Assembly (NCBI RefSeq): GCF_001306135.1
Contig: NZ_LGKP01000040.1
Location: 24,726-88,725 of the forward strand
Length of the DNA stretch: 64,000 nucleotides
Reading direction: 5' to 3'
From: Herpetosiphon geysericola
GTDB lineage: Bacteria; Chloroflexota; Chloroflexia; Chloroflexales; Herpetosiphonaceae
In this document: positions 12,972 to 28,676 of the stretch, piece by piece
Numbering within the stretch: the first letter of the stretch is position 1
How the letters are laid out: the number at the start of each line of letters is the position of its first letter
Program-made: the position numbers and the translations under genes
The notes under the pieces: model-generated
What the model was told of the DNA's origin: nothing
What the model saw: the letters and a program-made list of their open reading frames with translations, nothing else
The model's database searches: none

Positions 12972-13991
12972 GTGTTACACGAACAACAAACCCCTATCAC
13001 TCCCATAGTTATCAATGGCCCATGGACGCGCGAAGCCCGCGAACGGGCGATTGCCGAAGAAGTAAAATTAGCCTATATCGAATATTTTCGCAAAGCTGTC
13101 AAAACCCGCAATTGGTTGCCATGGGACGATTTGCCCTTGCGCGAGATGGAGCAATATGGTCATCTGCTGAGCGAAGATACCGTAACCTTGGTCGAAAGTT
13201 TCCTCGGCGTTGAAGATTACGTTGGCGATTATGTCGAGGATACGATCAACATTGTGCATGGTAAACGCGAACGGCGCAATATTCAATTGCAATGGGGTGC
13301 TGAAGAATCGAAGCATGCAGAAGCATGGGAATTAGTACTGTTGCACTCAGGCCGCCGCACCAAAGAGCAATTAGAAAGCTATCGCGATAAAGTGGCCGAG
13401 CATCGCTGGACGATGTATGAAAATCACCCTGGCTTTGACACGCCCTTAGGTGTTGCCGCCTATGCCATGGTCCAAGAACGCGCTACCTATTTCAATTATG
13501 AAGAATTGCGCAAACGGATTCGCAGCGAATATGGCTTGCCCGAGCACAGCACCGAAGAAGAACGCAAACGCGGCAAGCAAATTGGCGCAGCCGCAGCCTT
13601 CAAAATTGTTGGCGTTGATGAAATTGCCCACCACGGCATGTTTTTGCGGGTGATCGATATTTACAAGCGCTATTTGCCCTATGAAACGCTCGATATGGTG
13701 TTTCGGGTGCTGAATGGTTTCAACATGCCAGCGCTGCATATTTTGCCCAATGCAGAGGAACTGAAAGCCTCCTTGGAACGCACCAAGCTTTACACGCCAC
13801 TCAAGCATGGTCGTTTTGTTGCCAACCCCGTGCTCGATGCCATGGGCTTTAACAACAAACGCGCGCTCGAACGGGCCGTGCAACACGCCAAGCTTTTGCC
13901 AACCGGCCTTGGCCCTGAGCACGTCGCAATTGGCCGCGATGGCGAGTTTGTGATTTCAATGCAGCCAGACGCCGAAGTTGAAGCCGCCTAA
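12972..13991 (+). CDS. Soluble acyl-ACP desaturase (di-iron ferritin-like fatty-acid desaturase, DesA family)
   Basis: Two di-iron E-x-x-H motifs (EESKHAE, DEIAHHG) in an acyl-ACP desaturase-like context. GTG start preceded by an AAGGAG RBS. Confidence 0.75.
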   Translation: MLHEQQTPITPIVINGPWTREARERAIAEEVKLAYIEYFRKAVKTRNWLPWDDLPLREMEQYGHLLSEDTVTLVESFLGVEDYVGDYVEDTINIVHGKRERRNIQLQWGAEESKHAEAWELVLLHSGRRTKEQLESYRDKVAEHRWTMYENHPGFDTPLGVAAYAMVQERATYFNYEELRKRIRSEYGLPEHSTEEERKRGKQIGAAAAFKIVGVDEIAHHGMFLRVIDIYKRYLPYETLDMVFRVLNGFNMPALHILPNAEELKASLERTKLYTPLKHGRFVANPVLDAMGFNNKRALERAVQHAKLLPTGLGPEHVAIGRDGEFVISMQPDAEVEAA

Positions 13992-14015
13992 GACGTTACT
14001 TAAAGCCCAAAGCGC

Positions 14016-14050
14016 AGGGAGCATTGAATCCCTGCGCTTTGTTGTTTAAC
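14016..14050 (+). terminator. Rho-independent terminator
   Basis: GCGCAGGGA-loop-TCCCTGCGC hairpin followed by a T-rich run. Confidence 0.6.
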
Positions 14051-14087: not shown

Positions 14088-14453
14088 TTAAGAATTGGAG
14101 ATTGATGATTGTTGGGTGTTGGTGTAGGCCGCCAAATCTTGTTCTTCAATCACTGGCATAAAGCGCGTCATCTCCACCATCTTGAAGATTTTTTGATGAT
14201 GAGGGCTAACATGGAGACAAAAGACTTTATAGCCATTCTTGCGCGCAGCCACCACAAACTTCAGCAACACCGAAATGCCAGCAGAGTTGATAAAGGCCAC
14301 ATCGGCAAAATCTAAAACCGTAATTGGTTTCATGTGAGTACAAGCATGTTCGATCGCTGCCGCCGAAACGGCATCGACGCTGTTGGTCAGAATATGCAAC
14401 AGCACGACATCATCCCACTCTTCTCGGCGAATTACCGATTGTACGTCGCTCAT
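14088..14453 (-). CDS. STAS-domain anti-sigma-factor antagonist (RsbV/SpoIIAA-like)
   Basis: STAS fold with a conserved Ser in DFADVAFINSAGISVLL. Confidence 0.8.
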   Translation of the reverse strand: MSDVQSVIRREEWDDVVLLHILTNSVDAVSAAAIEHACTHMKPITVLDFADVAFINSAGISVLLKFVVAARKNGYKVFCLHVSPHHQKIFKMVEMTRFMPVIEEQDLAAYTNTQQSSISNS

Positions 14454-14564
14454 AATAGATCTCCTAGGTTGGTCAACGCGGCCAACTCTCCCCTGATCAT
14501 AGTTGAGCAAGCGATTTTTGGCAACCAAGCTGCATGAAATTTTGATGACAGATCCAAAGAACAT

Positions 14565-14770
14565 AGAGCATTGATAAGGATGAAGGATGAAGGATGAGGG
14601 ATGAGAGATGAAGCCTAAAACCGATTGCCCTTCGCGTTCTTCGCGATCTTTGCGGTTCTATTCTTCGTGCGCTTCGTGTCCTTCGTGGATCAACACTAGC
14701 CCCCGACCCCTGATCCCCAGCCCCCAATCCCATTCGCTACTTTGCTTTGAAAATCCGCAGCCGCAAACTG
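14565..14770. repeat. Miniature repeat element (GGATGAA and CTTCGTG tandem units, G-rich end) inserted between the rsbW-like and STAS genes
   Basis: gataaggatgaaggatgaaggatgagggatgag...cttcgtgcgcttcgtgtccttcgtgg...cccccgacccctgatcccc. Related to the element at 25.6-25.97 kb. Confidence 0.6.
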
Positions 14771-15156
14771 GTGCCAGTGCCAGAGCTTTGCACCTCATAT
14801 TGATCGACCAATTCGCTGATCAAATATGAGCCAAAGCCACGCAACATGCCTGATTCGAGATTATCTTCCTCGACCACCCGGCGCTCGGTGTTGAAGTGCT
14901 CGATGCCTTTGCCATGATCGATAATTTCAACTTCTAGTTGATCGGCGTGGAGCGAAAAAATGACTTCAACCGAGCCAGCCACGCCGCCACCACCGCCATG
15001 CTCAATCGCGTTGGTGACGGCTTCGCTCACTGCGAGCTTGAGATCTTCGACGCGCTCGCGCGGAAAGCCCATGGTGCTGCCAAGCTCGGCGGCACTAGCC
15101 CGCACAACCCGCTCAAAAACCAAGTCAGATGGAATGTTAAGGTGAATCCGATTCAT
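14737..15156 (-). CDS. Anti-sigma regulatory factor Ser/Thr kinase (RsbW/SpoIIAB-like, HATPase_c)
   Basis: LAVSEAVTNAIEHGGGGG (N-box/G1), 139 aa. Confidence 0.8.
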   Translation of the reverse strand: MNRIHLNIPSDLVFERVVRASAAELGSTMGFPRERVEDLKLAVSEAVTNAIEHGGGGGVAGSVEVIFSLHADQLEVEIIDHGKGIEHFNTERRVVEEDNLESGMLRGFGSYLISELVDQYEVQSSGTGTSLRLRIFKAK

Positions 15157-16709
15157 CGTGAACCTCCACGGGCCATTGCGCGGCCCTTTTGGGGTAATTG
15201 TTCTTGTTGATTGATCAGATGTTCATAGCGACGAAGGTAGGCTTTGCCCAAGGAACTGTTGCCAACTTGGAGATAACATGCCCCCAGATAATACAGTGCT
15301 TGGGTATGGCGTGGGTTACGTCGCAGCACTTTTTCAAATAACGGGATGGCTTGGGCTGGTTCGAGCATTTCTTTATAACAGGTGCCCAGCATAAAAGTGG
15401 TTTCAATATCATCGGGCCAGTGCATCAGCACATGGCTAAATTCACGCGATGCCAAATCGTAGCGCCGCCGCCGCGTGTACATATAGCCCAAATCGTAGCG
15501 TAGCGAATGCGCATGCGGTGCTAATTCCACCGCTTTACGCCAAGCAGCCAAGGCCCAACTTTCGTGGCCCAACACGGTATACATAAAGCCCAGCAAATAG
15601 TAGGCATTGGGATCTTTGGGCAAGAGCTGTACCGCACGTTCAAAGGCCCGCATGGCGGCATGATGTTTTTCTAAATCATAGAGCAGCTTGCCCATTTGTA
15701 AGAAAATTTGGCCATCGTTGGGGCGCAATTTGGCGGTGCTATACAAATGGTTGTAGGCCTCGCGATGTTTGCCTTGAAAACGCAAAATTGCGCTGATGCG
15801 GAGCCGCGCATCAACATAATAGCGATCTTGCGGTGGAATCTGGCCATACTCTTGAAACGCCAATTCCCAGCGCCGCGCCCGCGCCAACAAATTACCAAGC
15901 AAATAGCGCGCCCGCTGTTCGGTTGGCCGCCATTTGAGCAAGGCTTCGTAAATGCGCTTAGCATCTTCGTCGTAGCCTTGAGCTTTAAGGTCATCGCTCA
16001 AACGGTAATACCAATTGGCAACCTCTTGCTCCGATTTGCTCACCAGCACTTCATCGGGGCCAACGCTGGGCGAGATAAAGGTTGGTTCAACGCGCAGCGC
16101 CTCGGCAAAACAGCGCTGGGCCAATTCGTGAGCGCCATGGGCTTGGTGCATCAAACCCATATAATACAAAGGTTCGCCAGCATAGGGACGCAACTCACGG
16201 GCCGAGGTAAAATGAATATAGGCCCGACCAGCATCGTCGAGCATTTGATAGGCGCGGCCAAGCGCAAAATGGGCTTCGTACAAGCCATTGTTATGCTCAA
16301 GCGCTTCCTTGAACGCACCAATTGCGCGATCGATTTGGCGCATCGCCCCAAAAGCCACGCCCAAATTGTAGTGCGCCTCGGCTAGTTGCGGATCGGTTTG
16401 TACCGATTCCAAATATTCACGCTGGGCAGTTGGCCAATCATCTTGAAACGCACAAGCATTGCCAATATACAAATAAATAATCGCCCGCTCACGATCATAA
16501 ATTTGCGATTTCTCATCGCCCTCGACATAGGCCGCGATCAACGCGGTTTTGAAATGCTCGATTGCATCAGGATAATTGGCGGCCAAATAGGCTTTGATCC
16601 CGCGTCCAAACGCAGCACCCAAGCGCGTTCCAGCCATAAAACGCTCGCTCCCAGCAAAGGTATCGAGGTCCAGCGGCATTACATTGAGCGTGTCAACATT
16701 GGTAGTCAT
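15153..16709 (-). CDS. TPR-repeat protein
   Basis: Multiple 34-residue TPR-like repeats (AxxYxxLGxxYxxxGxxxxAxxxFxxAL pattern). Confidence 0.8.
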   Translation of the reverse strand: MTTNVDTLNVMPLDLDTFAGSERFMAGTRLGAAFGRGIKAYLAANYPDAIEHFKTALIAAYVEGDEKSQIYDRERAIIYLYIGNACAFQDDWPTAQREYLESVQTDPQLAEAHYNLGVAFGAMRQIDRAIGAFKEALEHNNGLYEAHFALGRAYQMLDDAGRAYIHFTSARELRPYAGEPLYYMGLMHQAHGAHELAQRCFAEALRVEPTFISPSVGPDEVLVSKSEQEVANWYYRLSDDLKAQGYDEDAKRIYEALLKWRPTEQRARYLLGNLLARARRWELAFQEYGQIPPQDRYYVDARLRISAILRFQGKHREAYNHLYSTAKLRPNDGQIFLQMGKLLYDLEKHHAAMRAFERAVQLLPKDPNAYYLLGFMYTVLGHESWALAAWRKAVELAPHAHSLRYDLGYMYTRRRRYDLASREFSHVLMHWPDDIETTFMLGTCYKEMLEPAQAIPLFEKVLRRNPRHTQALYYLGACYLQVGNSSLGKAYLRRYEHLINQQEQLPQKGRAMARGGSR

Positions 16710-16719
16710 AACAGTTCCC

Positions 16720-17817
16720 TTAGGACGATCCTTTGGTGGATTGGAGCAAGCGATATTCTTCGATCACTGGGCGCAATTGCGCTTGAAGTTCGCGGGCAAT
16801 TCCACGGCCAAATTGGCTGGCAACCATTTCATTCAACGGACGCAATAGCTCTAGGCACTGGTCGGGCGTGCGGCTTGCGCCAACAAGCGCTAAGCTTTGC
16901 CACCATTCATCAGCAGTCATTGGCCCAACCACATCGGCCACAATGCTATGCATTTCATCAAGCAAATTGGCCAAACGTCGCCGCACGAGCACCATCGTCA
17001 CATCATCGTGTTTGAGTTGGCCTTGGGTCCAAGCGCGAACTTCGCTGAGCACGCGGGCCATCAACGCCCGTGGCTTAAGGTGGCCAACTGTTTGTAAAAG
17101 GCTTTGAAAGCGTGGGTAGCCATATAAAACTTGATGTTCATTGGTCGCTTCAACCACGCCATCAGTGTACAACATGACTGAATCGCCATAATTCAGTTGC
17201 AAGGTGGATTCAGTATAGCAATCGATCTCCATCACGCCGAGCGGCACACCTGACGTTTCGATTTCAACAACTTGATTATTGATCACAATCAGATAATTGT
17301 GACCAGCATTTGCCAATTGCATCATGCCAGTTTGCGGGTTGATTAATGCATACAGCATCGTAACCATGCCCTGGGGCATTTCTTCGATCAAAATATTATT
17401 AACTGCAGCCAGGGTGTGGCCTGGCGATTGACCGCGCCGCACTTCGGCCCGAAAGACCGTGCGCGCTACCGCCATGCGCAAAGCCGCTGGCAAGCCCTTG
17501 CCGCTCACATCGCCAATCATAATCCCCTGCGAGCCGTTCACCGCCAGAAAATCATACAGGTCGCCGCCAAGCTCACGAGCTGGCAATGAGACTGCGCTTA
17601 GCTCCCAGCCGGGCAAGCGCGGCACGGTTTCGAGCATCAAGCCTTGCTGCAAATCACGCGCCAATTGCAAATCTTGTTCCAACTCAGCTTGACGTTGGTC
17701 GGGCACTGATGCTTCGGGCACTGGCGCAGGCAATGCTGGCTCAAGCGGAATCGCCACCCGACCATGAGCACGGTGACTAAGCAGTGAACTATAGATTACT
17801 GGCTGTACTTTTTGCAT
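16720..17817 (-). CDS. PP2C-family Ser phosphatase (RsbU/SpoIIE-like)
   Basis: GGDLYDF and GDVSGKG motifs with DGVVEA metal-binding Asp; these are SpoIIE/RsbU PPM signatures. Confidence 0.85.
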   Translation of the reverse strand: MQKVQPVIYSSLLSHRAHGRVAIPLEPALPAPVPEASVPDQRQAELEQDLQLARDLQQGLMLETVPRLPGWELSAVSLPARELGGDLYDFLAVNGSQGIMIGDVSGKGLPAALRMAVARTVFRAEVRRGQSPGHTLAAVNNILIEEMPQGMVTMLYALINPQTGMMQLANAGHNYLIVINNQVVEIETSGVPLGVMEIDCYTESTLQLNYGDSVMLYTDGVVEATNEHQVLYGYPRFQSLLQTVGHLKPRALMARVLSEVRAWTQGQLKHDDVTMVLVRRRLANLLDEMHSIVADVVGPMTADEWWQSLALVGASRTPDQCLELLRPLNEMVASQFGRGIARELQAQLRPVIEEYRLLQSTKGSS

Positions 17818-17821
17818 AAGA

Positions 17822-19279
17822 TTAAAATGTTCCTTGGCTGGCTTCTAAGCTGCCAATCCAGCGTTCGCAGGCTGAACGCAACCAGCCAACTGCGATGCCG
17901 TCAATGACTGTGCTACTTGAATGTTGGGCCAACTTGCGTAAGGCATGTTGATAATAACGTAAGGCTGCGGTTTCGCGCCCTTGGTGGCGATAGCTTTCGG
18001 CCAAATGAAAAGCGATTGTCGGCGATTCGGGCACCAAATAGCTAGCACGCTCCAAATAATTAATCGCTTTATCCCACGCACCTTGGTTGAGCTCGATCAT
18101 GCCCAGCACCACATAGGCGGCATCTTGCAAGACATCAAGTTCTAAGGCGCGGCGGGCTTCAGCAGCAGCCTGATCGTTTTGGCCAAGGTCAGCATGCAAT
18201 TGCGCCGCCAAGGCCAAAATTGCTGGCTGGCGCTGATTGGGCGCAATAGTTGCCAAAAGGCTCAAGCCGCGTCGCTGTTGGCCTTGTGCCCGCAAGGTAC
18301 GCGCTTCGGCCAACAAACTGGCTACATCAGGCACTTTTGGCACATCAACGCTAACGCTGGGCCGCGTACTTGGCCGTGGTCGTACCGGAGTTGGCTCAAC
18401 AGGCTTATCAAGTGGCTTGGTAATTGGCCGTTCGACCGTTGGGCGTGGCTTGGGTTGGCCATCGCCTTTGCGATAGATAAATGCGCCAGCCACCTCGACC
18501 GTTTCGAAGCGATCAAAAATGCCCCACAGCGATTCCGAAAAGCCCAAGAGCAAATAGCCACCAACCGCCATCGCCGCATAGATCCGTTCGATCAACTGGC
18601 GACATGTTTCGAGCTGAAAATAGATGGTGACGTTTTGGCAAAACACCACATCAAGCTGATAGGCCCAATGCGGCAGGGCGTCAAGCAAATTGTGCTGCTC
18701 GAATTGTACCAAGGATCGCACTGCTTCGCTGACACGCAGCGACCCATTGGGCTGTTGCTCAAACCATTGTTTGTAGTCGGATTGAACGTTAGCCAACGAA
18801 CGCCCACGATATTCGCCAGCAATCGCCCGCTCAAGCGGCACATGGCTTAAATCGGTGGCCCAAATCGAAATTGGGCGGCTTGGCGGGTTGCCCCATTGCT
18901 GCAAGGCAACCATGGCCATGCTATAAGGTTCCTCGCCAGTTGAGCAGCCAGCGCTCCAGCAACGCAGCGGACGCAACGGCGAACGTACTCGCTGAAGTTC
19001 AGGAAAAATATGCTCGCGCAAAGCCCGAAAATGAGCTGGGTTGCGAAAAAATTGAGTTTCGTGATTGGCCAAGCGCTCAGCCAACCATTGCACCTCGCTT
19101 GCATTGGTCGGGTCTTGAATCCGCAACGTATAGGCTGCTGGGCTAATTTGCAATTGGCGATAGCGTTCCTGAACAAACATGCGCCCTTGGCGCATGCGAC
19201 TATCATCGAGATACAAGCCCGCTCGGCGAGCGAGATAATCGCGGATGATCGTCCATTGTTCAGTGCTTAACTCACTCAT
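17822..19279 (-). CDS. cheR: Chemotaxis protein methyltransferase CheR with C-terminal TPR repeats
   Basis: CheR SAM-MTase core (FFRN...RCWSAGCSTGEEPYS...LLGFSE) followed by TPR. Confidence 0.85.
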   Translation of the reverse strand: MSELSTEQWTIIRDYLARRAGLYLDDSRMRQGRMFVQERYRQLQISPAAYTLRIQDPTNASEVQWLAERLANHETQFFRNPAHFRALREHIFPELQRVRSPLRPLRCWSAGCSTGEEPYSMAMVALQQWGNPPSRPISIWATDLSHVPLERAIAGEYRGRSLANVQSDYKQWFEQQPNGSLRVSEAVRSLVQFEQHNLLDALPHWAYQLDVVFCQNVTIYFQLETCRQLIERIYAAMAVGGYLLLGFSESLWGIFDRFETVEVAGAFIYRKGDGQPKPRPTVERPITKPLDKPVEPTPVRPRPSTRPSVSVDVPKVPDVASLLAEARTLRAQGQQRRGLSLLATIAPNQRQPAILALAAQLHADLGQNDQAAAEARRALELDVLQDAAYVVLGMIELNQGAWDKAINYLERASYLVPESPTIAFHLAESYRHQGRETAALRYYQHALRKLAQHSSSTVIDGIAVGWLRSACERWIGSLEASQGTF

Positions 19280-20358
19280 CGACGTTCAGCTTCACTGAGC
19301 AGCGCCACCAAACGCGGCGCAATCAAATCGGCGGCCAAAAATTCCATCGCAGCCCCAACCTCCTCTGCGGCACGCGGCATGCCCCAAATCGCGCTGGTTG
19401 TACGATCTTGGGCAATTGTGCGAGCGCCTGCCCGCCGCAAGGCCAATAACCCTTGGGCGCCGTCGCGGCCCATGCCAGTTAACAGCACGCCAATCGTTTG
19501 CTTGGGCAAAACCTTGGCAGCTGATTGCATGGTTACGTCAACTGACGGATACAACAAATTATCAGGTTGCAACTCAAGATGCACCGTCCAGTTGCCATCG
19601 ATGCGCAAATGATGGGTATCGGGGGCAACATAAACGTGGCCAGTTTTCAAACTCATGCGATGCTGTGCCAATTCCACCTTCAAGGGCGAATGATTGTCCA
19701 ACCAGTCTACCATTGTACCAACAAATCCCTCGGCGATGTGCTGCACAATGATAATGCTTGCGGGGATGCTCGCAGGCAGGCTATGCAGGAGTTTGTATAA
19801 CACGCGTGGGCCGCCTGTCGAAGCACCGACGACAATCAACCAGCGTTGGCTTGGTGGGCTAATTGCGGCCATCAATAAGGGAATATTGGTTTCGGTAGTT
19901 GGCGATTTGCGCCGACGCCCGCGTAAATGGGTTACGACTTTGACCCGCGAAAGCATCTTAACCCGCTCCAATAGGCGCATCCGATTGGCTTCACCTTGGG
20001 CAAGGGTTAAATCGGTGGGTTTTTCCCACACTTCCAAAGCTCCGGCGTTGAGCATCTGAAAGGTTAAATTGCGATCATGACGGGTCAGCGATGAGGTAAT
20101 CACCAGAATTGGCGTGGGATGATAGGCCATAATTTCTTCAGTGGCCTGCAAACCATCCATCACCGGCATACGCACGTCCATCGTGATAATATCTGGTTGC
20201 AAGGCTGCCGCCAACTGCACCGCCTCACGCCCATCGCGGGCCTCGCCAACCACTTGAATCGCTGAATCACTGGCTAAAATAGTGCTGATGACTCGGCGCG
20301 AAACCGCCGAATCATCGACAACTAAGACGCGAATTGGTGCAAGCGGCCCTGGCATCAT
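19276..20358 (-). CDS. cheB: Protein-glutamate methylesterase CheB (REC plus methylesterase)
   Basis: REC domain (VLVVDDS...DVRMPVMDG) plus the methylesterase GASTGGP motif. Confidence 0.9.
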   Translation of the reverse strand: MMPGPLAPIRVLVVDDSAVSRRVISTILASDSAIQVVGEARDGREAVQLAAALQPDIITMDVRMPVMDGLQATEEIMAYHPTPILVITSSLTRHDRNLTFQMLNAGALEVWEKPTDLTLAQGEANRMRLLERVKMLSRVKVVTHLRGRRRKSPTTETNIPLLMAAISPPSQRWLIVVGASTGGPRVLYKLLHSLPASIPASIIIVQHIAEGFVGTMVDWLDNHSPLKVELAQHRMSLKTGHVYVAPDTHHLRIDGNWTVHLELQPDNLLYPSVDVTMQSAAKVLPKQTIGVLLTGMGRDGAQGLLALRRAGARTIAQDRTTSAIWGMPRAAEEVGAAMEFLAADLIAPRLVALLSEAERR

Positions 20359-20717
20359 TACATACCCAACAACAGTTTGACGCGATTGGGCAAATCGAGC
20401 AAATCAAGATCTTTGTTGAGATAATCATCGACTCCGGCCTCAAAGCCTGCCCGTTTATCATCCATCGAGGTCAACATGATAATTGGCAATTCTTCAAATA
20501 AAGGATTGGCACGCAACTGACGGCAAACCTCGTAGCCATCAATCCCAGGCATTTGCACATCCAGCACCACTAAATCAGGCGTGAGATCGCCGATTTTTTG
20601 CAGCGCTTCTTCGCCGCTATAGGCCAAATCGACAGCATAGCCATACATTTCGAGCCGCATTTTGACAATATCGGTAACCAGTTTGCTATCGTCAACAACT
20701 AAAATTCGTTCACTCAT
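20358..20717 (-). CDS. cheY: CheY-like single-domain response regulator
   Basis: 119 aa REC domain (LVVDDS...LDVQMPGIDG...K). Confidence 0.85.
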   Translation of the reverse strand: MSERILVVDDSKLVTDIVKMRLEMYGYAVDLAYSGEEALQKIGDLTPDLVVLDVQMPGIDGYEVCRQLRANPLFEELPIIMLTSMDDKRAGFEAGVDDYLNKDLDLLDLPNRVKLLLGM

Positions 20718-20767
20718 TGAAAAACTCCTCGCAGGGAAAGATTGGCAGTAAGCAAGGCCAAGCTACT

Positions 20768-23074
20768 TTAGCGGCCAAGTAATTGATGAATCGTTTCGAG
20801 CAAGTTGCTTTGATCAAACTGGCTTTTGACGATATAGGCTTGTGCGCCAGCCAATAAGCCTTCACGCCGATCACTATCACGGGCTAGGCTTGTAATAATG
20901 ATAATTGGCAGTTGGCGCAAACGTTCATGGGCACGCACCCGACGGGTCAACTCAAAGCCAGTCAGCAACGGCATTTCAACATCGCTTACCAGCAGATCGT
21001 AGGAATTGAGGTTGAGCTTGTCAAGCGCATCTTGGCCATTAATTGCGGTCTCGACGATGTAGCCCGCCGATTGGAGCATCGAGCGTAGTAGTTCGCGGGT
21101 GGTAAACGAATCTTCAGCAACCAGCAATTTGGCTGGCTGACGTTTGCTTGGCGCTGGCAAAGCCACTGGTTTTCCCCATTCGCGCGCCCGAGCCGCAATC
21201 GCCAACGGATTAAGCACCAGCACCAAACGCCCATCAGGTAGGGCAATCGCCCCAGTGCATAAACGCTGTTCATGCAATAGTGCGCCCAACGATTTAACCA
21301 CTACTTCGCGTTCATCAACCAATTTATCGACCAGCAAGGCCAAAGGTCGATTGGCTGGCCCCAAAACCACCAAATTGGAAATATCCGATGGCTGGGGCAA
21401 CGGCCCGCGTTGCTCAAGCAAGGGCGCAAGCGCCACAATGCTCACGCTCCGCTCATCGACGCGCACGCTTGGCCGACCTTCGACCATTTGAATCTGCGCC
21501 CCAGAAACCCGCCGCCCACCCAAACAGGCGGTCGATGGCAAGGCATAGGTTGTTCCAGCCACATCAAACAACAGTACCCGTGTAGTCAGCAAGGTAATTG
21601 GCAAAATGAGGGTGAAGGTCGTGCCTTGGCCAAGCACTGAATGCACATCAACTCGTCCGCCAACCTCGCTCACAGCGGCGCGCACAACATCCATGCCCAC
21701 GCCACGCCCAGAAACATCGGTGATGATTGCGCTGGTGGAAAAACCAGGCTGCCAGATCAATTCCAAGGCTTCTTCAGCGCGCAACCGAGCAGCCGCTTCA
21801 GCATCGATAATCCCACGCTTAATGGCTGTTGCGCGAATCACCGCTGGATCAATGCCACGGCCATCGTCGCTGATGATAATTTCAATCGTGCCGCCCAACG
21901 AGCGTGCTTGCAAGCGCAAGGTGGCCTCAGCAGGCTTGTTGGTTTTAATCCGATCTTCGGGCGTTTCAACCCCATGATCAAGTGCGTTGCGCACCAAATG
22001 CAGCAACGGATCTGCCATCAACTCGATAACTTTGCGGTCGGCCTCGGTGGTTTCGCCCTCGGTGATTAAATTAACTTCTTTGCCCAACGAGCGCGCCAAT
22101 TCGCGCACTGCCCGCGGAATCGGCGCAAACAAACCAGCGACTGGCTGCAAGCGCGTTGCCATCACCTCGGCCTCAAGTTCATCGACCAAGGCCTCGCTGG
22201 CAGCGCTATGGCTGCTCCAACGTTCGCTGAGCAAACGCAATTGGTTGCGCGTCGATTGCGCCAGATTCTGCAATTGGCTCGCAAGTTCGCTAGCCTCACG
22301 CCGTTGCTGAAAGGTCACGCGCTGACCAGTTAAACGCTCGCTCAGTTGTTGGCTTAGACGTTCGCTTTTGCTCAGCAATTTATCTAAGGCTTCAAGATCG
22401 GCCACATGCTCAAGATGCAACTGACGGGTGACAACCAACTCACCAGCAGTATTCAACAAGCGATCCAAGCGTGAAATTGGCACGCGCACTGTTGAACGCG
22501 TAGTGTTGATCAGCTTTGGAGCTTCGCCCGTAGGCCTGGCTTTTTTCGGTGCTTGGGGCGCGACAACTGGGGCTGGCTCAGGCTTGGGTTGCTCAAGCAC
22601 AACTGGCACTGGCTCGGGTTCTGGTTCAGCCACAGGCTCAACAATTGGCGCTAGCTTTTTGGTCGGTGGCGCAGCTGGCAGGCTTTCGCCAGCAGCCAAA
22701 GCATTCAGCTGCTCGACCAACATATCAACGTTTGGATCAGTCGGCGGCGGCTCATTGACGTTGGCATTCAAAGCCAACAGCACATCAACACTAGCCAGCA
22801 GCACATCGTTAATGCTTGCATTCATGGCCAGCATGCCACTGCGCAAAGCCGAAAGCAAGCTTTCCATCGAATGCGCTAAACGCCCCATATCAATTTGGCC
22901 GAGCATGCGGGCTGAGCCTTTGATCGTATGAGCCGCCCGAAAGATCGTATCAATCGCTTCGCGATCGCCTGGGTTTGACTCCAAGGCCAACAAGCCTGTG
23001 GTCAAGGCCCGCACATTCTCTTCAGTTTCTTCGCGAAACTGGCCAAAAAATGCTGATAAATCAAAACCGCCCAT
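20768..23074 (-). CDS. cheA: Hybrid chemotaxis histidine kinase CheA with C-terminal receiver domain
   Basis: Hpt (AAHTIKGSARMLG), HATPase, CheW-like domain, C-terminal REC (LLVAEDS...DVEMP). Confidence 0.9.
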   Translation of the reverse strand: MGGFDLSAFFGQFREETEENVRALTTGLLALESNPGDREAIDTIFRAAHTIKGSARMLGQIDMGRLAHSMESLLSALRSGMLAMNASINDVLLASVDVLLALNANVNEPPPTDPNVDMLVEQLNALAAGESLPAAPPTKKLAPIVEPVAEPEPEPVPVVLEQPKPEPAPVVAPQAPKKARPTGEAPKLINTTRSTVRVPISRLDRLLNTAGELVVTRQLHLEHVADLEALDKLLSKSERLSQQLSERLTGQRVTFQQRREASELASQLQNLAQSTRNQLRLLSERWSSHSAASEALVDELEAEVMATRLQPVAGLFAPIPRAVRELARSLGKEVNLITEGETTEADRKVIELMADPLLHLVRNALDHGVETPEDRIKTNKPAEATLRLQARSLGGTIEIIISDDGRGIDPAVIRATAIKRGIIDAEAAARLRAEEALELIWQPGFSTSAIITDVSGRGVGMDVVRAAVSEVGGRVDVHSVLGQGTTFTLILPITLLTTRVLLFDVAGTTYALPSTACLGGRRVSGAQIQMVEGRPSVRVDERSVSIVALAPLLEQRGPLPQPSDISNLVVLGPANRPLALLVDKLVDEREVVVKSLGALLHEQRLCTGAIALPDGRLVLVLNPLAIAARAREWGKPVALPAPSKRQPAKLLVAEDSFTTRELLRSMLQSAGYIVETAINGQDALDKLNLNSYDLLVSDVEMPLLTGFELTRRVRAHERLRQLPIIIITSLARDSDRREGLLAGAQAYIVKSQFDQSNLLETIHQLLGR

Positions 23075-23089
23075 GCGATAGCTCCTCGC

Positions 23090-24592
23090 TTAGCGTGTAT
23101 TGGCCTCGATGTTGACCAACGAATGCAAACGGTTTGCAATCGCGGTGAGTTTGGATGCTGCATCGGCAGTTTGGCGCGAACCAGCAGCCGTTTGACGTGA
23201 GACTTCGGCAATTTCACGCATGGTTTCGACAACTTGCTCGGATGCAGTTTGTTGCTGAGCAGTCGCTAGGCTAATTTCTTGGGCCAATTGGGCGGTATGT
23301 TCACCCAACACCACAATCGAATCCATTTCTTGGCCTGCCCGATGCGCCAAGTTGACCCCTTGAACAACTTCTTTGACGCTTTCTTCGGTCGCCAGCACCG
23401 AGGCATTGGTTGCAGCCTGAATTTCGGCAATCACATCTTTGACTTCGCGCGAAGCAGCCAAGGTACGGTTGGCCAAGCTCTTGACTTCGGCGGCAACCAC
23501 CGCAAAGCGTCGACCATGCTCGCCAGCCCCAGCAGCTTCAATCGCCGCATTCAAAGCCAACAGGTGAGTTTCATCGGAAACATCGTCAATCAAGGCGATA
23601 ATTTCGCTAATATGATGCGAACGTTCGCCCAAGCTCAAGACCCGCGATGAAACCTCTTGCACTCGTTGCTTAATCCGTTCCATGCCTTGAATCGCTTCAT
23701 CAACCGATTGCTGGCCCATGGCCAATGAGGTTAAGGTTTGTTGGGCGGCAATGCTGACTTGATCCGAGGCGCTAGCGATTTGGCGCGCGGTAAAGCCCAA
23801 TTCTTCAATCGTTGATGAAACTTCGGCGACTGCCGAAGCTTGTTCAGTTGCGCCCGAAGCTTGTTGCTGCGAGGCTGCCGACAATTCGGTGGCAGCAAAC
23901 GAAAGATCGGTGCCAAGCTCAATCTGCTGGATATTTTTCTCGATCAACTGCTCGTTGGCACGCATCAAATCGGCAGTCCATTGCTCGCTTTTGAGCGCAT
24001 ATTCGGCCAAGGCTTTGCTGAAAATCGTGGTTAGCACAATCGTTGTGGCCAAACCCACAAAAAACAGCACAGCGCCAACGCCATACACGCCAGCATCACC
24101 AGCAGTTAACGTACCTTCGGGAACTCTGAATGAGCCGAGATTATCTTTGAGCAGCAGCAACATACCATAAGCAAAGGTGATCGAAATGCCATAGGCCACA
24201 ATTTCGCGCCAGGTTGCCACCAAACCAACAATAAACAGCATCACCAGCAATAACGAAATGATCAAACTTTGATCGATCCCGCCATAGCGCACAGCACATG
24301 CCAAAGCAGCCAGCGAAATCGTGCCAATCAGCACATAGGTGGCAATTTGTTCTTGGCCTTGGCGAATCATGCGCAGGCTAAAAAAGGCGACCAGCAAAAT
24401 CGCGCCCATCGAAACAAATAGCACTCCGAGGGCATTCCACAATTGAGGATTATTGCGCTCGTAGATCCACGCTACCAAGGTTACTAACAAGGGCACGACC
24501 AAGGCAGCCAAGGCGACAATCCGCATAATCACGCGGCGGCGGTCAGCCAAATTCGTAAAATCGAGCGAGAAAAGCGAACCTAAATTCGCCAT
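23090..24592 (-). CDS. Methyl-accepting chemotaxis protein with multi-TM N-terminal sensor and no periplasmic domain
   Basis: Six to seven hydrophobic helices followed by the MCP signalling domain (methylation heptads, highly conserved LALNAAIEAARAGE). Start at MANLGS, preceded by an AAGGAG RBS. Confidence 0.85.
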   Translation of the reverse strand: MANLGSLFSLDFTNLADRRRVIMRIVALAALVVPLLVTLVAWIYERNNPQLWNALGVLFVSMGAILLVAFFSLRMIRQGQEQIATYVLIGTISLAALACAVRYGGIDQSLIISLLLVMLFIVGLVATWREIVAYGISITFAYGMLLLLKDNLGSFRVPEGTLTAGDAGVYGVGAVLFFVGLATTIVLTTIFSKALAEYALKSEQWTADLMRANEQLIEKNIQQIELGTDLSFAATELSAASQQQASGATEQASAVAEVSSTIEELGFTARQIASASDQVSIAAQQTLTSLAMGQQSVDEAIQGMERIKQRVQEVSSRVLSLGERSHHISEIIALIDDVSDETHLLALNAAIEAAGAGEHGRRFAVVAAEVKSLANRTLAASREVKDVIAEIQAATNASVLATEESVKEVVQGVNLAHRAGQEMDSIVVLGEHTAQLAQEISLATAQQQTASEQVVETMREIAEVSRQTAAGSRQTADAASKLTAIANRLHSLVNIEANTR

Positions 24593-24614
24593 GAGCAGAC
24601 TCCTTGGCACTGGT

Positions 24615-25034
24615 CTAGCGCGTTGCGTGTACCAGCACAAACAGTTCGAGATCAAGCATGAGGCATGGACGTTCATCGAGCATAATAATGCCCAAAATGC
24701 TGGGGTCGAGCAAGCTATCGGAAACTAAACTTGGCAATGGTTGCACGGTCAGTGCGGCCCGAATCGGGTCGCCTAATTGATCAACAACTACGGCCAAGCT
24801 TGCTCGTCCAGCCACAAATAAGGCTAAGCGATTAGCTTGTTCGCCAATTGGCTGTTGCAACCACTGATTTAAATCGATCACGTCGATTGGGTTGCCGTGT
24901 TGAATCACGCGGCGAATTGGTTGCCCGCTATTAGCAACATAATCCACCCCTACCAAGGCAGTTTGGCGAATTAAGAGCGTTTGATCACCGACACTCAGCG
25001 GATACAAATCGCTGACAACTGCTGGACTAACCAT
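24615..25034 (-). CDS. cheW: Chemotaxis coupling protein CheW
   Basis: CheW-like fold. Start placed at MVSPAVV. Confidence 0.7.
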   Translation of the reverse strand: MVSPAVVSDLYPLSVGDQTLLIRQTALVGVDYVANSGQPIRRVIQHGNPIDVIDLNQWLQQPIGEQANRLALFVAGRASLAVVVDQLGDPIRAALTVQPLPSLVSDSLLDPSILGIIMLDERPCLMLDLELFVLVHATR

Positions 25035-25476
25035 TGTTGATCGACCCAAGCAGCGCCGCCAGATCAAGCCAGGTTGCAAATCCAAATGGCGTTGGCAGCA
25101 AGCCTCTACTGGCAACCGTGCCGCGATGCGGCGTTGGCTCAGCCAAACTTAAATCAAGCTGCAACATATCGAGCACTTGATCAACCGCAATTGCACAGTC
25201 AATCTGTTCGTGAACCAATAAAAAGCGGCTGCGGCGGGTTGGCGTAATTGGCTTCATGCCCAAGATAACCCGCATATCAACCGCTGTCAGCAATACGCCA
25301 CGCTGATTGATAATGCCCATAATCGCCGCCGCCGTGCCTGGGATTCTGGTTGGCGTGCGCCAACGCTCGATGCCACGGGCTTGCTCGACTGGCAAGGCAA
25401 AGCGTTCTTGATCGAGGATAAAAACCACAAATTGCGCCAATTGATCCGTAACTTGGCTCACAGCAGGCTCCCTCAT
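25027..25476 (-). CDS. cheW: Chemotaxis coupling protein CheW, second copy
   Basis: QFVVFILDQERFALPVEQARGIE is the canonical CheW N-terminus. Confidence 0.8.
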   Translation of the reverse strand: MREPAVSQVTDQLAQFVVFILDQERFALPVEQARGIERWRTPTRIPGTAAAIMGIINQRGVLLTAVDMRVILGMKPITPTRRSRFLLVHEQIDCAIAVDQVLDMLQLDLSLAEPTPHRGTVASRGLLPTPFGFATWLDLAALLGSINNG

Positions 25477-25589
25477 GATTCAATGCTGATAGCTTGGCCA
25501 AATACCACGCAACCAACGACCAAATCACCACACATGGCGCATTCTAAAGCAGCAAATCGTAGCTTAGCATAGTCGCAAGGTAGCCCAAC

Positions 25590-25970
25590 TGTCAAGCGTA
25601 CTAAACCAAGTAATTCAAGGATGAATTATGAAGGATGAGGGTCTACAGAACAAAGAGCATAGAACATAGAACATAGAACATAGGGATCAGTCTCTAAGCT
25701 ATTGGCTTGTGGCTAGCGGAAGATTATTCGTGGAATTCGTGGAATTCGTGGAATTCGTGGCTAAAAACATGTGACTATTGGCTATTAGCTTGTGGCTCTG
25801 GGAATATAATCTGTGGTCATCTGTGTCAATCTGTGGCTAAAATGGTCTTCGCGATCTTCGTGGTTGCAAACTTCGTGCTCTTTGTGCGCTTCGTGGATCA
25901 GTTTTTAACGCATGGCTTTTGCCTTCTGACTTGGGCTTTATCCTTCATCCCTCATAATTCATCCTTGAAT
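25590..25970. repeat. Composite miniature repeat element of about 360 bp
   Basis: Terminal inverted repeats AAGGATGAATTATGA(A/G)GGATGA. Internal tandem 7-9 bp units CATAGAA x4 and GAATTCGTG x4. A CTTCGTG-rich segment is homologous to the 14.6-kb element. Confidence 0.65.
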
Positions 25971-26287
25971 TACAACGTTTGTAATTGCGAGATCAAGTGC
26001 TGGCCAGTGATTGGCTTGGCAAGGCTCAGGCAGCCAGTCGTTTGCGGTTGGGGTAAATCGGTCAGCAGAATATAGTTCTGATGAGCGGCGTAGTTCAACG
26101 CATTGCGTGGTTCACTCGAAATCGCTTCATCAAGAATGACAAAGTGTGGTTGATATTGCTGATTTAATTGTTCAGCCAGCAGCGAACTATCAGCTTCGTA
26201 GACTGTGTACCCTGCTCGACAAAGGTGATAGCGCATAATGGTTCGGGTAATTTGATCAGGATCGACGAGCAAAACAGTCATTCGCAT
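25970..26287 (-). CDS. Stand-alone receiver-like (REC) domain protein
   Basis: 105 aa with VLLVDPD...FVILDE; REC-like with partial conservation. Confidence 0.55.
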   Translation of the reverse strand: MRMTVLLVDPDQITRTIMRYHLCRAGYTVYEADSSLLAEQLNQQYQPHFVILDEAISSEPRNALNYAAHQNYILLTDLPQPQTTGCLSLAKPITGQHLISQLQTL

Positions 26288-26363
26288 ACAAAGTATCCTT
26301 ATAGTGATGGATCAATTCGGCAACCATCACCATCACTATAAGCACACAAGTTTACGAGTCAGA

Positions 26364-27074
26364 TTACAAGCCCCGCCGCGGTTGGACATCAAAGACGTAG
26401 CCCACTCCACGCACGGTTTTGAGGTAGATTGGCTTAGATGGGTTGTCCTCAAGTTTGGTGCGCAATGAGCGAATTCGCACCCATAACGATGATTGATCGC
26501 CCTCTTCACCCAAGCCCCACGCTTTGCGCAACAAGGTTGTAGTGGCTACGGCCACAGTTGGCGTTTGCAGCAACAAATACAACACTCGCAACTCAATCGG
26601 CTCCAAGGGAATTGCTTCGCCTTTGCGCATCAAAATATGTTGGCCGAAATTGACCGATAAATCTTCGTCTATCACAATCAACTCGCCTGGGTGCAAGCCA
26701 CCTTCATACGATTTGGTCAGCAGCTTGTTGACCCGCGCCCGCAATTCTGGGTAGCGATAGGGCTTGGTCATATAATCGTCGGCGTGTTGCTCCAGCCCGC
26801 GCACGGTCGTAGCTTCATCGGAAATTGAAGTCAACATGATGATCGGAATTTCAACATAGCGCCGCAAGCGATCAGACAGCTCAAATCCGGTCATGCCAGG
26901 CATCATCAAATCGAGAATCGCCAAATCGGGCCATGAGCTTTCGACCATCGCCAGCGCCGATTGGCCTGATTCTGCCGCCATCACTTCAAAGCCATCGTTG
27001 AGCAAATTGCTCACCAAAGTCCGTCGAATAATCGTATCATCATCAACCACCAAAATCCGCCATCGTGCTGGCAT
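26364..27074 (-). CDS. OmpR-family response regulator (REC plus winged-helix)
   Basis: ILVVDDD...DLMMPGMTG plus a C-terminal trans_reg_C (VRGVGYVF). Confidence 0.9.
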   Translation of the reverse strand: MPARWRILVVDDDTIIRRTLVSNLLNDGFEVMAAESGQSALAMVESSWPDLAILDLMMPGMTGFELSDRLRRYVEIPIIMLTSISDEATTVRGLEQHADDYMTKPYRYPELRARVNKLLTKSYEGGLHPGELIVIDEDLSVNFGQHILMRKGEAIPLEPIELRVLYLLLQTPTVAVATTTLLRKAWGLGEEGDQSSLWVRIRSLRTKLEDNPSKPIYLKTVRGVGYVFDVQPRRGL

Positions 27075-27080
27075 TGGCTC

Positions 27081-28676
27081 TTACTCCTTCCAAGGTAGGT
27101 GTATGGTGACGGTCGTCCCCTTGCCTACTTGGCTATCAACGCTAATTGTGCCGCCATGAGCGCCAACTGCTAAATTACAGAAGGTCAAGCCCAGCCCTGT
27201 GCCGCGCGACTGTGCAGCAGTCCGTCCTTGGTAAAATTTATCGAAAATATGTGGAATATCTTCGGTGGCAATGCCCTGCCCAGTATCACTAACCAACAAC
27301 GTAATTAATTTGGCCGCTTGATCAACCGTGCCAATCACCCGAATTGTACCGCCTGGCTTGGTCCATTTGATGCCATTGCTAACCAAATTGGCCAAGACGC
27401 GCACCATTTTATGCTCATCAAGCACCACCAATGGCGCAGCAGGCAGATTTAGCTCGAATGTCAGTTGTTGCTCAACCGTAATTGGCAGCACTTGCTCGCT
27501 CAGCAATTCGCCAATTCGTTCAAGGCTGGTGGTTTCTTGGCTCAGCACCAAGCGCCCAGCTTCTGCTTTGTACACATCAAGCAAATCGTCGATTAGGCGT
27601 TGTTGCGCTGCGCCAGCGCGAAAACCTAGCTCGACAAACAATTTGCCATCGTCATCAAGTTGGGTTGTCATCAAGGCATCGAAGCAGCCAACCATGCCCG
27701 CCAATGGCGCGCGCAAGTCGTGAGTCAACATCTGAATAAATCCGTCGCGGCTATCTTCGGCCTCACGCAAGCGCGTGTAGACCGCCGCGTTGGTCAGGGC
27801 AACGCTCAATTGATCAGTCAGGGCTTTGATCAAGGTTTCTAGCTCGGTCTTGAAGAAATTGCGCTGTGGATGGACCAAAATAAACACGCCGATAATCGTA
27901 TTTTGGGCATAATTATGCAATGGCAAGGCCAGCGCTGAGCCAATTTCCTCGCGATCATCATAAAAATGTTTCCAGCGTGGATCGTTTTGGGCATCTTCGA
28001 CAATTTGGACTTCGCCAGTGCGCAAGGCATACGAGGCTAGCCCTTCGCGCAGCACCGCCTCAATCGCTTGCTCTGCCTCTGCTGGCGGTAAATGTGGCCG
28101 AAACAGAATGCGCCGCCAAACCCGATTTTGATCATCGAGCAACAAAACGCTGCCACGGCTAGCTCCCAGCAGCTCGTTAATCGCATTCAAGGCTTCGGGT
28201 AACACCTGATCAATATCCAATGAGCGATGTAAGGTTTGCGAAACGCGATAGAGAAAGCGCAGCCGTTCTTGTTCACGGTGCAAAGCGCGGCGGGTGTGCT
28301 TCAAGCGCAACAGCACCCGCATGCGCGCCAGCAATTCATCACGATTAACTGGCTTGGTCACATAATCGTCGGCGCCAAGATCCAAGCCCGTAACTGTGTC
28401 GGCAGTGGTTTGCTTGGCCGAAACAAAAATAATCGGGATAAACGGCAGATGGTTGCGCTCGCGAATGGCTTGCAGGGTTTGATAGCCATCCATTTCAGGC
28501 ATCATGACGTCAAGCAAAATCAAATCGGGGACTTGCTGTTCGAGCATTTCCAAGGCTTCGAAGCCGCTGCGAGCACAGGCGGTTGCATAGCCAGCGCGTT
28601 CCAACATACGCTGTAACACCATCACATTGGTGGTTTGATCATCCACAATCAAAATTAGTTCGGGTGTTGCTTGCAT
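27081..28676 (-). CDS. Hybrid sensor histidine kinase (N-terminal REC, GAF, HisKA, HATPase)
   Basis: REC (LIVDDQ...DVMMPEMDG), a GAF-like middle region, H-box LTHDLRAPL, and G-boxes DTGQGI/GTGLGL. Confidence 0.85.
   Translation of the reverse strand: MQATPELILIVDDQTTNVMVLQRMLERAGYATACARSGFEALEMLEQQVPDLILLDVMMPEMDGYQTLQAIRERNHLPFIPIIFVSAKQTTADTVTGLDLGADDYVTKPVNRDELLARMRVLLRLKHTRRALHREQERLRFLYRVSQTLHRSLDIDQVLPEALNAINELLGASRGSVLLLDDQNRVWRRILFRPHLPPAEAEQAIEAVLREGLASYALRTGEVQIVEDAQNDPRWKHFYDDREEIGSALALPLHNYAQNTIIGVFILVHPQRNFFKTELETLIKALTDQLSVALTNAAVYTRLREAEDSRDGFIQMLTHDLRAPLAGMVGCFDALMTTQLDDDGKLFVELGFRAGAAQQRLIDDLLDVYKAEAGRLVLSQETTSLERIGELLSEQVLPITVEQQLTFELNLPAAPLVVLDEHKMVRVLANLVSNGIKWTKPGGTIRVIGTVDQAAKLITLLVSDTGQGIATEDIPHIFDKFYQGRTAAQSRGTGLGLTFCNLAVGAHGGTISVDSQVGKGTTVTIHLPWKE

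Follow-up and report, generated by a model that had tools for sequence, protein, structure and literature searches.

The window analysed here is a 64-kb stretch of Herpetosiphon geysericola DNA. Between 14088 and 28676 it carries 14 genes in which a chemosensory (Che) pathway adjoins a Ser phosphatase, a tetratricopeptide repeat (TPR) protein, a kinase and a STAS protein of the partner-switching type, and 11 of these genes form a module that is conserved across the Chloroflexia. An initial annotation of the window had named the 14 genes and their domains, and Pfam found each of them in place and on the minus strand:

27081-28676, minus strand: hybrid histidine kinase (HK) with receiver (REC), GAF, HisKA and HATPase domains (Pfam)
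26364-27074, minus strand: OmpR-family regulator, REC plus Trans_reg_C (Pfam)
25970-26287, minus strand: short REC of 105 amino acids (aa), matching the first half of a receiver only (Pfam)
25027-25476, minus strand: cheW (CheW1), first gene of the conserved module, in the same position in 39 loci (Pfam CheW 3.9e-21)
24615-25115 as open reading frame (ORF), likely 24615-25037, minus strand: cheW' (CheW2), a divergent CheW-like gene (Pfam CheW 9.7e-5, below cut-off)
23090-24676 as ORF, true extent 23090-24592, minus strand: methyl-accepting chemotaxis protein (MCP; MCPsignal 1.1e-36)
20768-23074, minus strand: CheA-REC, with Hpt, H-kinase_dim, HATPase_c, CheW and Response_reg domains (Pfam)
20358-20717, minus strand: CheY, a single REC (Response_reg 1.6e-27)
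19276-20358, minus strand: CheB, REC plus CheB_methylest (CheB_methylest 2.9e-57)
17822-19279, minus strand: CheR-TPR (CheR 7.6e-52; TPR families at residues 350-450)
16720-17817, minus strand: PP2C, a Ser phosphatase of the SpoIIE/RsbU type (SpoIIE 1.1e-46)
15153-16709, minus strand: TPR protein of 518 aa (TPR families only, Pfam)
14737-15156, minus strand: RsbW/SpoIIAB-like kinase (HATPase_c_2 8.1e-26)
14088-14564 as ORF, true extent 14088-14456, minus strand: STAS protein (Pfam STAS 3.7e-7; TIGR00377 2.1e-10)

All 14 ORFs are under purifying selection relative to H. aurantiacus (dN/dS 0 to 0.18), which marks them as genuine genes and not fortuitous reading frames. For the PP2C, identity is 92% with H. 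aurantiacus DSM 785 and 98% with Herpetosiphon giganteus, H. llansteffanensis and Herpetosiphon sp. NSE202, and the 11.4-kb module shares 94.8% DNA identity with H. giganteus. Orthologue alignments place the true start of the MCP at M29 (24592) and the likely start of cheW' at the ATG at 25037, giving an 11-nt overlap with cheW; a second CheW gene is also called at this position in loci L001 and L003. The true start of the STAS protein is M37 (14456), with an AGGAG ribosome-binding site 7 nt upstream, for a product of 122 aa, and its orthologues are 108 aa long and begin MSD.IRREE.

Counted from these starts, the junctions within the core (in nt, with minus for overlap) are cheW/-11/cheW'/-24/mcp/15/cheA/50/cheY/-1/cheB/-4/cheR, continuing into the phosphatase-to-STAS cassette as cheR/4/pp2c/10/tpr/-4/rsbW/280/stas (172 to the STAS ORF as listed). 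Further upstream, beyond HK, 28701-33193 holds genes for an ABC-F ATPase and for a protein that combines a zinc ribbon, a Ser-Thr kinase and two FGE-sulfatase domains (STK-FGE), and the junctions there run STK-FGE/20/ABC-F/24/HK/6/OmpR/76/short REC/493/cheW. Tiny or overlapping junctions, proposed earlier for the whole run, are thus seen at most positions and fail at two, the 493 bp between the short REC and cheW and the 280 bp between rsbW and STAS. Nor is 28676 a unit boundary: ABC-F ends 24 bp before HK and STK-FGE 20 bp before ABC-F, and the HK/OmpR/short-REC trio may form, together with these two, a unit of five genes instead of being part of the che operon.

We mapped all window proteins onto 55 genomic loci encoding PP2C relatives. 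The conserved core comprises 11 genes (window 14088-25476) in the order cheW-cheW'-mcp-cheA-cheY-cheB-cheR-pp2c-tpr-rsbW-stas. This order is kept in about 55 Chloroflexia loci from Herpetosiphonaceae, Roseiflexaceae, Chloroflexaceae, Oscillochloridaceae, Viridilinea and Kouleothrix-like metagenome-assembled genomes (MAGs), with all ten detectable genes present in 30 loci, and independent gene calls in one Herpetosiphonaceae MAG and one Roseiflexus MAG returned it unchanged. Distance matrices of the Che and cassette proteins are congruent (r = 0.8-0.94 among nine of the ten proteins; only r = 0.54-0.62 for STAS, whose set is short and partly mis-extracted), and the Che and switch halves therefore share one history, the module being inherited as a unit.

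The 14-gene unit first drawn contracts accordingly to the 11 genes conserved elsewhere, the HK/OmpR/short-REC trio lying upstream of the core only in four loci of the genus Herpetosiphon (L005, L007, L008 and L009), where a lineage-specific output branch is possible. Chloroflexales loci extend the module on its other side. A second well-conserved single-domain receiver is found downstream in 28 of 44 loci and a REC-GAF-HD-GYP protein, a putative cyclic di-GMP (c-di-GMP) phosphodiesterase, in 18 of 44, sometimes with a lactate/malate dehydrogenase gene between STAS and the second receiver (extensions at L052 13752-16959, L047 13682-17046, L013 14059-16308 and L014 13781-16208). The receivers of the Herpetosiphon REC-GAF-HK and of REC-GAF-HD-GYP are 38% identical. 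We read the HK trio and REC-GAF-HD-GYP as lineage-specific side branches, outside the core, of the 'multidomain receiver' kind found in alternative cellular function (ACF) systems.

A sister subfamily of the TPR protein, represented by 14 clusters from MAGs labelled Chloroflexota or Chloroflexia bacterium, carries the cassette in a different order, rsbW-STAS-PP2C-TPR, in each of four contexts (L062 6337-19778; L064 7313-20333; L063 7602-13261; L060 6940-13129). In three of the four, the cassette is followed by cheW, a long cheW-like gene, two stand-alone Hpt genes, cheA-REC, cheY, cheB and cheR-TPR, one of these three contigs ending after the cheW genes. In the fourth (L060, on a 683-kb contig), the cassette is followed by a 350-aa polytopic membrane protein, with no che gene within 10 kb; PP2C, TPR, kinase and STAS are therefore a self-contained cassette able to stand alone. 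No MCP gene was found in any of the four loci. The sister PP2C (475-517 aa) has an N-terminal domain of ~200 aa with multiple transmembrane (TM) segments and is without the C-terminal helical bundle of the window protein; a comparison of its membrane domain with the six-TM region of the window MCP gave nothing by BLASTP and 35% probability by hhalign. Identity between the sister and window proteins is 49% for TPR, 47-50% for STAS (with the same signature), 44% for the kinase, 39-42% for the PP2C core, 59.5% for CheY, 40% for CheB and 34-43% for CheA.

The proposal that the Che pathway is coupled to a partner-switching trio is strengthened by these comparisons, the two being co-inherited in about 55 loci and still neighbours after complete re-ordering in the sister lineage. 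A neighbourhood kept through such re-ordering is a classical signature of functional coupling and, as comparative genomic evidence, argues for such coupling between the Che system and the cassette. That two independent systems simply share one transcription unit could be entertained from a single genome, as signalling genes are abundant in Herpetosiphon (175 two-component system genes; PMC6210107) and make chance adjacency plausible there, and as in this genus STAS is set off by a 280-bp spacer and preceded by a promoter-like site of its own. We regard the absence of any functional link as very improbable, given adjacency in several families that survives re-ordering at only 30-60% protein identity, the congruent distance matrices and the cheR/pp2c/tpr/rsbW junctions of 4, 10 and -4 nt.

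The three switch proteins have the motifs of their families. In the PP2C, the metal-binding motifs GGDLYD, DVSGKG, YTDG and DDxT are invariant in 43 sequences. In its AlphaFold2 (AF2) model (pLDDT 86.7), the chain begins with a disordered N-tail (residues 1-40) and a linker helix (41-63); the catalytic core occupies 71-280, and four helices at 285-363 make up a C-terminal bundle. The bundle is confidently modelled and ends in an invariant GRG..RE..Q.R...EEYR, usually the very C-terminus, and the N-tail carries a near-invariant (T/S)LLxH motif (the termini are encoded at 16723-16974 and 17700-17817). The protein is soluble, without a receiver or sensor domain. Searches for a degenerate receiver or known sensor, with Pfam and NCBIfam, in the AF2 model and by a Pfam scan of the two isolated termini relaxed to E<=10, found none; the sole Pfam match of the C-terminal extension is a weak, sub-threshold DUF3046 (E 0.0075), and neither extension has a match above curated cut-offs. 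In Foldseek, the catalytic core alone matches, best to Rv1364c, SiaA, P. aeruginosa RssB and SpoIIE. The bundle and the N-tail motif look like docking elements, possibly for TPR repeats.

The 139-aa kinase retains the N, G1 and G2 boxes (EAVTNAIEHG, D.G.G and RGFG), and its best PDB match is RsbW 6m36 (3.6e-14). The STAS protein has an invariant Ser in FINS(A/S/G)GIS in all 44 orthologues and in the sister lineage. We take the Ser in FINSAGIS to be the phospho-acceptor position of SpoIIAA Ser58 and RsbV Ser56 (D-S-x-G motif). With their motifs intact, PP2C, kinase and STAS are predicted to be competent.

Whether such a switch would end at a sigma factor was judged from gene neighbourhoods and family scores. 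The initial annotation had noted that the block holds no sigma-factor gene and had suggested sigma-factor release as its output. The first statement extends to the whole window, and among 64 related loci we found no conserved sigma-factor gene near the module. The one incidental RpoD-like match is a primary sigma fragment at a contig edge (L018 294-539, minus strand); it lies ~1 kb upstream of cheW and is confined to a single Chloroflexaceae MAG. Sigma-factor release gains no positive support here: no sigma gene accompanies the module in 65 sequences (1.1 Mb) and all three switch proteins fall below equivalog thresholds: the kinase, which matches the NCBIfam RsbW, SpoIIAB and RsbA families, scores 80 bits with RsbW against a cut-off of 145, and STAS scores 40 against 53 bits.

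The kinase might nevertheless sequester an unlinked sigma factor, which the Che system would free through PP2C and STAS, leaving the TPR protein as an accessory scaffold. The kinase's nearest characterised relatives are RsbW and SpoIIAB, STAS belongs to the anti-sigma-antagonist superfamily, and CrsR-CrsA of the Shewanella che1 locus controls an unlinked RpoS (PMC9855816, PMC6482189), all of which would suit this explanation. We nonetheless consider it unlikely, because, besides the missing sigma gene and the low family scores, many STAS switches target non-sigma proteins (PMC8256260) and because it does not account for a TPR protein that always accompanies the trio and is under stronger constraint than the phosphatase.

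That TPR protein, which the initial annotation treated as a mere list item, is the signature component of the cassette. Its gene follows that of the PP2C after 10 nt and shares 4 nt with rsbW. The product is predicted to be cytoplasmic, and its AF2 model (pLDDT 87) has the TPR repeats arranged in two lobes, 29-207 and 227-504, with a disordered linker between them and without any further domain. Ahead of the first repeat, the motif LDLDTFxGSERF (residues 13-24; 16635-16673) is invariant in both subfamilies, including its Ser, and might serve for binding or as a target of phosphorylation. When 5.8 billion proteins were searched by word index, members of the family turned up only in Chloroflexia, unannotated and with ~70% identity. 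An exhaustive HMMER search of 1.84 billion cluster representatives returned one 50% cluster for the family and exactly one other full-length relative (49% identity, 645 aa), the remaining matches being generic giant TPR proteins with 21-36% identity, nearly all over several separate stretches. The TPR gene is among the most constrained of the block, the lowest dN/dS values (0-0.05) belonging to CheY, TPR, RsbW and STAS, as listed here by mean identity to orthologues outside the genus and by dN/dS relative to H. aurantiacus:

CheY: identity 0.76, dN/dS 0
TPR: identity 0.72, dN/dS 0.011
STAS: identity 0.68, dN/dS 0.047
RsbW: identity 0.59, dN/dS 0.013
PP2C: identity 0.52, dN/dS 0.072
CheB: identity 0.50, dN/dS 0.054
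MCP: identity 0.49, dN/dS 0.053
CheA: identity 0.48, dN/dS 0.050
CheR: identity 0.45, dN/dS 0.046
CheW: identity 0.33, dN/dS 0.073

On the chemosensory side, MCP, CheW, CheA, CheB and CheR form a complete core in one cluster by Pfam, and Pfam found no CheD gene in the window block. The MCP has about six hydrophobic (TM) segments by hydropathy and is without a periplasmic domain or HAMP. Its heptad class, named earlier as something to establish, fits 40H: the cytoplasmic hairpin aligns without gaps to the P. putida PcaY receptor (6s18), shows two symmetric 14-aa insertions relative to Tsr (36H) and continues for 142 residues after the tip glutamate. It also carries QQ-containing methylation-type motifs. 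CheA consists of Hpt, P3, P4, P5 and receiver domains, without P2, and retains the HTIKGS phospho-His motif; cheW' has a dN/dS of 0.07-0.18. Conservation within the module is highest for CheY, which averages 76% identity with orthologues from other genera and has dN = 0 relative to H. aurantiacus. Its C-terminal face (alpha4-beta5-alpha5) is conserved, the signature DDYLNKDLDLLDLPNRVKL being kept in the sister lineage at 59.5% identity. As a candidate output regulator, the conserved core has only this single-domain protein, multidomain receivers being adjacent in some lineages only.

A CheA with a fused receiver, a CheR-TPR and the absence of flagellar or pilus genes from the 64-kb window fit a Che-like system of the ACF kind, a class assignment that rests on the literature: CheR-TPR is associated with ACF systems, all Chloroflexi Che pathways have been classed as ACF, and CheR-TPR is the sole CheR kind that they use (PMC3447774). 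A CheR-TPR survey entered the Chloroflexus and Roseiflexus clusters simply as "single domain RR". The gene tables of L001, L003, L060 and L062-L064 likewise contain no flagellar or type IV pilus genes. The further step from these hallmarks to a non-motility output is weakened by the fact that the host organisms glide (PMC3368417); Herpetosiphon itself is a non-flagellated, gliding, filamentous predator.

We propose that the module is a vertically inherited signalling supermodule of the Chloroflexia in which an ACF-type Che pathway is coupled to the four-protein cassette, and we advance this overall model tentatively, at somewhat under an even chance. The receptor would control CheA and CheA would phosphorylate CheY, while CheB and the CheA receiver would provide adaptation and a phosphate sink. 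CheY~P would then act in trans on the sensor-less PP2C, directly or via the TPR scaffold, its likely contact points being the PP2C linker helix or the lineage-specific C-terminal helical bundle. In the switch, the kinase would phosphorylate STAS, PP2C would dephosphorylate STAS-P and free STAS would capture the kinase; the captured kinase would release an alternative partner, namely the co-translated TPR protein or its client, and not a sigma factor. More speculatively, and reasoning from the way TPR domains recognise peptides, the TPR repeats might dock the TLLxH motif or the EEYR tail of PP2C. As outputs, gene expression and gliding or aggregation behaviour are candidates.

We infer the direction of signal flow, and favour the route from CheA through CheY~P to PP2C, because the PP2C of the window type (type A) is sensor-less, because RsbU-type PP2Cs are activated by partners that order the helix before the catalytic domain (PMC12143880) and because the F7 class of chemosensory clusters has a receiver fused to the phosphatase. 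The TPR protein is favoured as the partner of the kinase because no sigma gene is conserved near the module, because its gene overlaps that of the kinase by 4 nt, and because it is inseparable from the trio and strongly constrained. A more specific version, possible if somewhat unlikely, is that this Chloroflexia-specific scaffold as kinase partner forms, together with CheY, a sigma-independent hub for gliding, reversal or aggregation, with a membrane sensor that is modular and supplied by either the MCP or the PP2C.

Several observations weigh against the proposed model. No result shows physical contact of CheY with PP2C or with the TPR protein. We considered CheY as the split-off receiver of a REC-PP2C protein ('split RsbY/CrsR') and found no support for this, its best PDB relatives being generic receivers. 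The sister PP2C has its own membrane domain and che genes are still adjacent, so that the Che system is not simply a replacement for a missing sensor. In V. vulnificus, the CheA2-RsbU pair gave no two-hybrid signal (PMC10107281). The TPR protein, with neither an enzymatic nor a DNA-binding domain predicted, can presumably only be an adaptor for some other effector, and the kinase's closest characterised relatives are true anti-sigma factors. The top conservation of CheY, finally, would also fit a terminal output to an unlinked machine.

This last point leads to the converse arrangement, in which the cassette is an input to, or modulator of, the Che array (through CheA, CheW or the receptor) and CheY is the sole output, for example to the gliding apparatus of Chloroflexia. 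Besides the constraint on CheY and on its alpha4-beta5-alpha5 face, it draws on the sister lineage, where the PP2C bears a membrane domain and the cluster has no MCP gene, so the switch could supply the sensing; on CheS of Sinorhizobium, a STAS protein that binds CheA (PMC12654446); and on the fact that all module-bearing Chloroflexia glide (PMC3368417). The co-variation of RsbW with MCP and CheB (0.57-0.60, partial mirror-tree) adds weakly to it. We had tried the residual mirror-tree signal as an indicator of co-evolving proteins and do not rely on it, as it is weak (TPR-RsbW 0.56, RsbW-CheB 0.60) and confounded by shared phylogeny. We judge an input role unlikely: the cassette also occurs without che genes within 10 kb (L060) and so has a role apart from them, no sensor that could provide an input is recognisable in the type-A PP2C, and no evidence of contact between STAS and CheA was obtained.

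The supposed edges of the cheW-to-STAS module, and its one internal gap, lie in non-coding sequence with the following features:

25477-25969, minus strand: 493-bp spacer upstream of cheW, with tandem repeats, an inverted repeat and a promoter-like site
14457-14736, minus strand: variable rsbW-STAS spacer, with CACGAAGnn 9-nt tandem repeats, CATCCTT repeats and a promoter-like site at 14524..14496
14008-14041, no strand assigned: hairpin with a 13-bp stem, located where the STAS and desaturase-like genes converge; of all terminator-like sites in the scan, it is the strongest

The 493-bp spacer contains a promoter-like TTGACA-18-TATGCT (25595..25566) and a 39-nt inverted-repeat pair (25603-25641 / 25942-25980), and its length, repeat-match positions and alignment breaks differ between Herpetosiphon genomes. 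It is the likely 5' boundary of the module, and the hairpin at 14008-14041 is its likely 3' end; promoter- and terminator-like sites overall show no enrichment over shuffled sequence and serve here as pointers, not proof. Alignments to other Herpetosiphon genomes also break at the rsbW-STAS spacer, and in Roseiflexus and Chloroflexaceae the rsbW and STAS genes overlap.

One repeat family, on the minus strand, occupies both long spacers (14580-14690 and 25603-25980). It comprises tandem CACGAAGnn units, CCTCATCCTTCAT/CATCCTT runs and the 39-nt inverted-repeat pair, which flanks 300 bp. Nine of the 12 window matches to the 9-nt tandem repeat fall in the two spacers (0.4 expected by chance), and in H. 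giganteus, NSE202 and H. aurantiacus the corresponding spacers carry the repeats as well. The CACGAAGnn repeats were considered as operators for the adjacent OmpR regulator, an idea that we rejected because a companion motif of the family occurs at another, unrelated intergenic site (L005 17720-17846; also L007) and copies vary between strains. The family looks like a genus-specific, dispersed intergenic, MITE-like element, with a conceivable regulatory role.

Convergent with STAS, the plus strand of 12050-13991 carries a small ORF at 12050-12385, a gene for a membrane protein with a HAAS domain (12342-12905) and one for a 358-aa protein that weakly matches fatty-acid desaturases, an arrangement shared by the other loci of the genus (L005, L007-L009). 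Che7 of M. xanthus is reportedly linked to a desaturase; for the desaturase-like neighbour of STAS, any such link would be conjecture. Elsewhere in the window, a low-GC island (GC 0.37-0.47, compared with about 0.52 outside it) holds a type III-B CRISPR effector locus at 50445-58915, which encodes Cas10/Cmr2, Cmr3, Cmr5, three RAMP proteins and a protein of 446 aa without a Pfam match. At 41214-42514 and 48648-50180 lie a neighbouring pair of peptidase-inhibitor genes of the chagasin family (I42) and a gene for a Ser/Thr kinase that ends in an FHA domain; neither is related to the module.

The H. llansteffanense genome paper noted that one contig holds "an entire chemosensory system" and said nothing further (PMC6210107). 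Full-text searches aimed at such a link, in a library lacking most subscription papers, so that a prior mention is possible, returned for Chloroflexi no account of the phosphatase/TPR/kinase/STAS part. Many Che-like systems work without steering flagella, and for few of them is the output known. The compact, class-wide unit described here yields biochemical predictions (STAS phosphorylation, kinase-TPR binding and CheY-dependent control of the phosphatase), offers a handle on the behavioural decisions of filamentous Chloroflexia and on the role of their single conserved Che system, and brings forward two unannotated families under strong constraint, the TPR protein and the PP2C C-terminal domain.

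Among known systems, the individual switch proteins resemble those of the Bacillus RsbU/RsbV/RsbW (sigma-B) and SpoIIE/SpoIIAA/SpoIIAB (sigma-F) switches, with which the module shares the same three families, the catalytic and phospho-acceptor motifs, and the PP2C fold with its linker helix. It differs from them in having no co-encoded sigma factor, sub-equivalog scores, a PP2C without the RsbU N-terminal domain but with a C-terminal bundle, and the added TPR protein and che genes. Read-outs of a PP2C/kinase/STAS switch beyond sigma release are known from P. aeruginosa HsbR-HsbA (FlgM/HsbD), Nostoc HmpU/V/W and SiaABC, and the Nostoc switch governs motile-filament development in a gliding filamentous bacterium (PMC6482189, PMC8256260); unlike the module, these have no TPR partner and are not in a che operon, and their sequence kinship with it is at the superfamily level only.

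Like the module, ACF systems such as P. aeruginosa Wsp and M. xanthus Che3 with CrdS/CrdA have a CheA-receiver, a CheR-TPR and no flagellar or pilus neighbours, and the REC-GAF-HK/OmpR and REC-GAF-HD-GYP genes adjacent to the module resemble ACF kinase or c-di-GMP outputs (PMC3447774, PMC3147164). In the module, by contrast, the universal Che partner is a Ser/Thr partner switch and not a REC-fused output, and the core regulator is a single-domain CheY. CheS of Sinorhizobium and Agrobacterium is also a STAS-only protein encoded in a che operon (PMC12654446), but it lacks a kinase or phosphatase partner and targets CheA/CheY1 directly, whereas the module has a full kinase/phosphatase pair.

Precedents are the gammaproteobacterial F7 'stage 1' che clusters of Vibrio, Shewanella, Pseudomonas and Methylomicrobium, which carry a Ser phosphatase, in the form of REC-PP2C, and STAS (PMC7184735, PMC10107281, PMC6482189). 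V. cholerae che3, V. vulnificus che2 and S. oneidensis che1 resemble the module in joining a full che cluster with two cheW-like genes, CheB and CheR to PP2C and STAS, and they are not their host's motility pathway (PMC7184735, PMC10107281, PMC9855816). The F7 clusters, however, have a receiver fused N-terminally to the phosphatase (in CrsR together with a kinase/anti-sigma domain), a soluble receptor of the 36H Aer2 kind and a CheD; they contain no TPR protein, and their demonstrated target is RpoS. The module, of the ACF kind, has a PP2C without REC, a separate kinase, a 40H six-TM receptor, a CheA-REC, a CheR-TPR, no CheD and an obligatory TPR protein of ~520 aa. The principle of connecting Che to a partner switch is therefore already known from F7, and the Chloroflexia module differs from it in every defining detail that could be tested. 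It represents a second, independent way to join a chemosensory array with Ser/Thr partner switching, with no fused receiver and with a dedicated scaffold, and it widens the design space beyond the proteobacterial F7/CrsR type.

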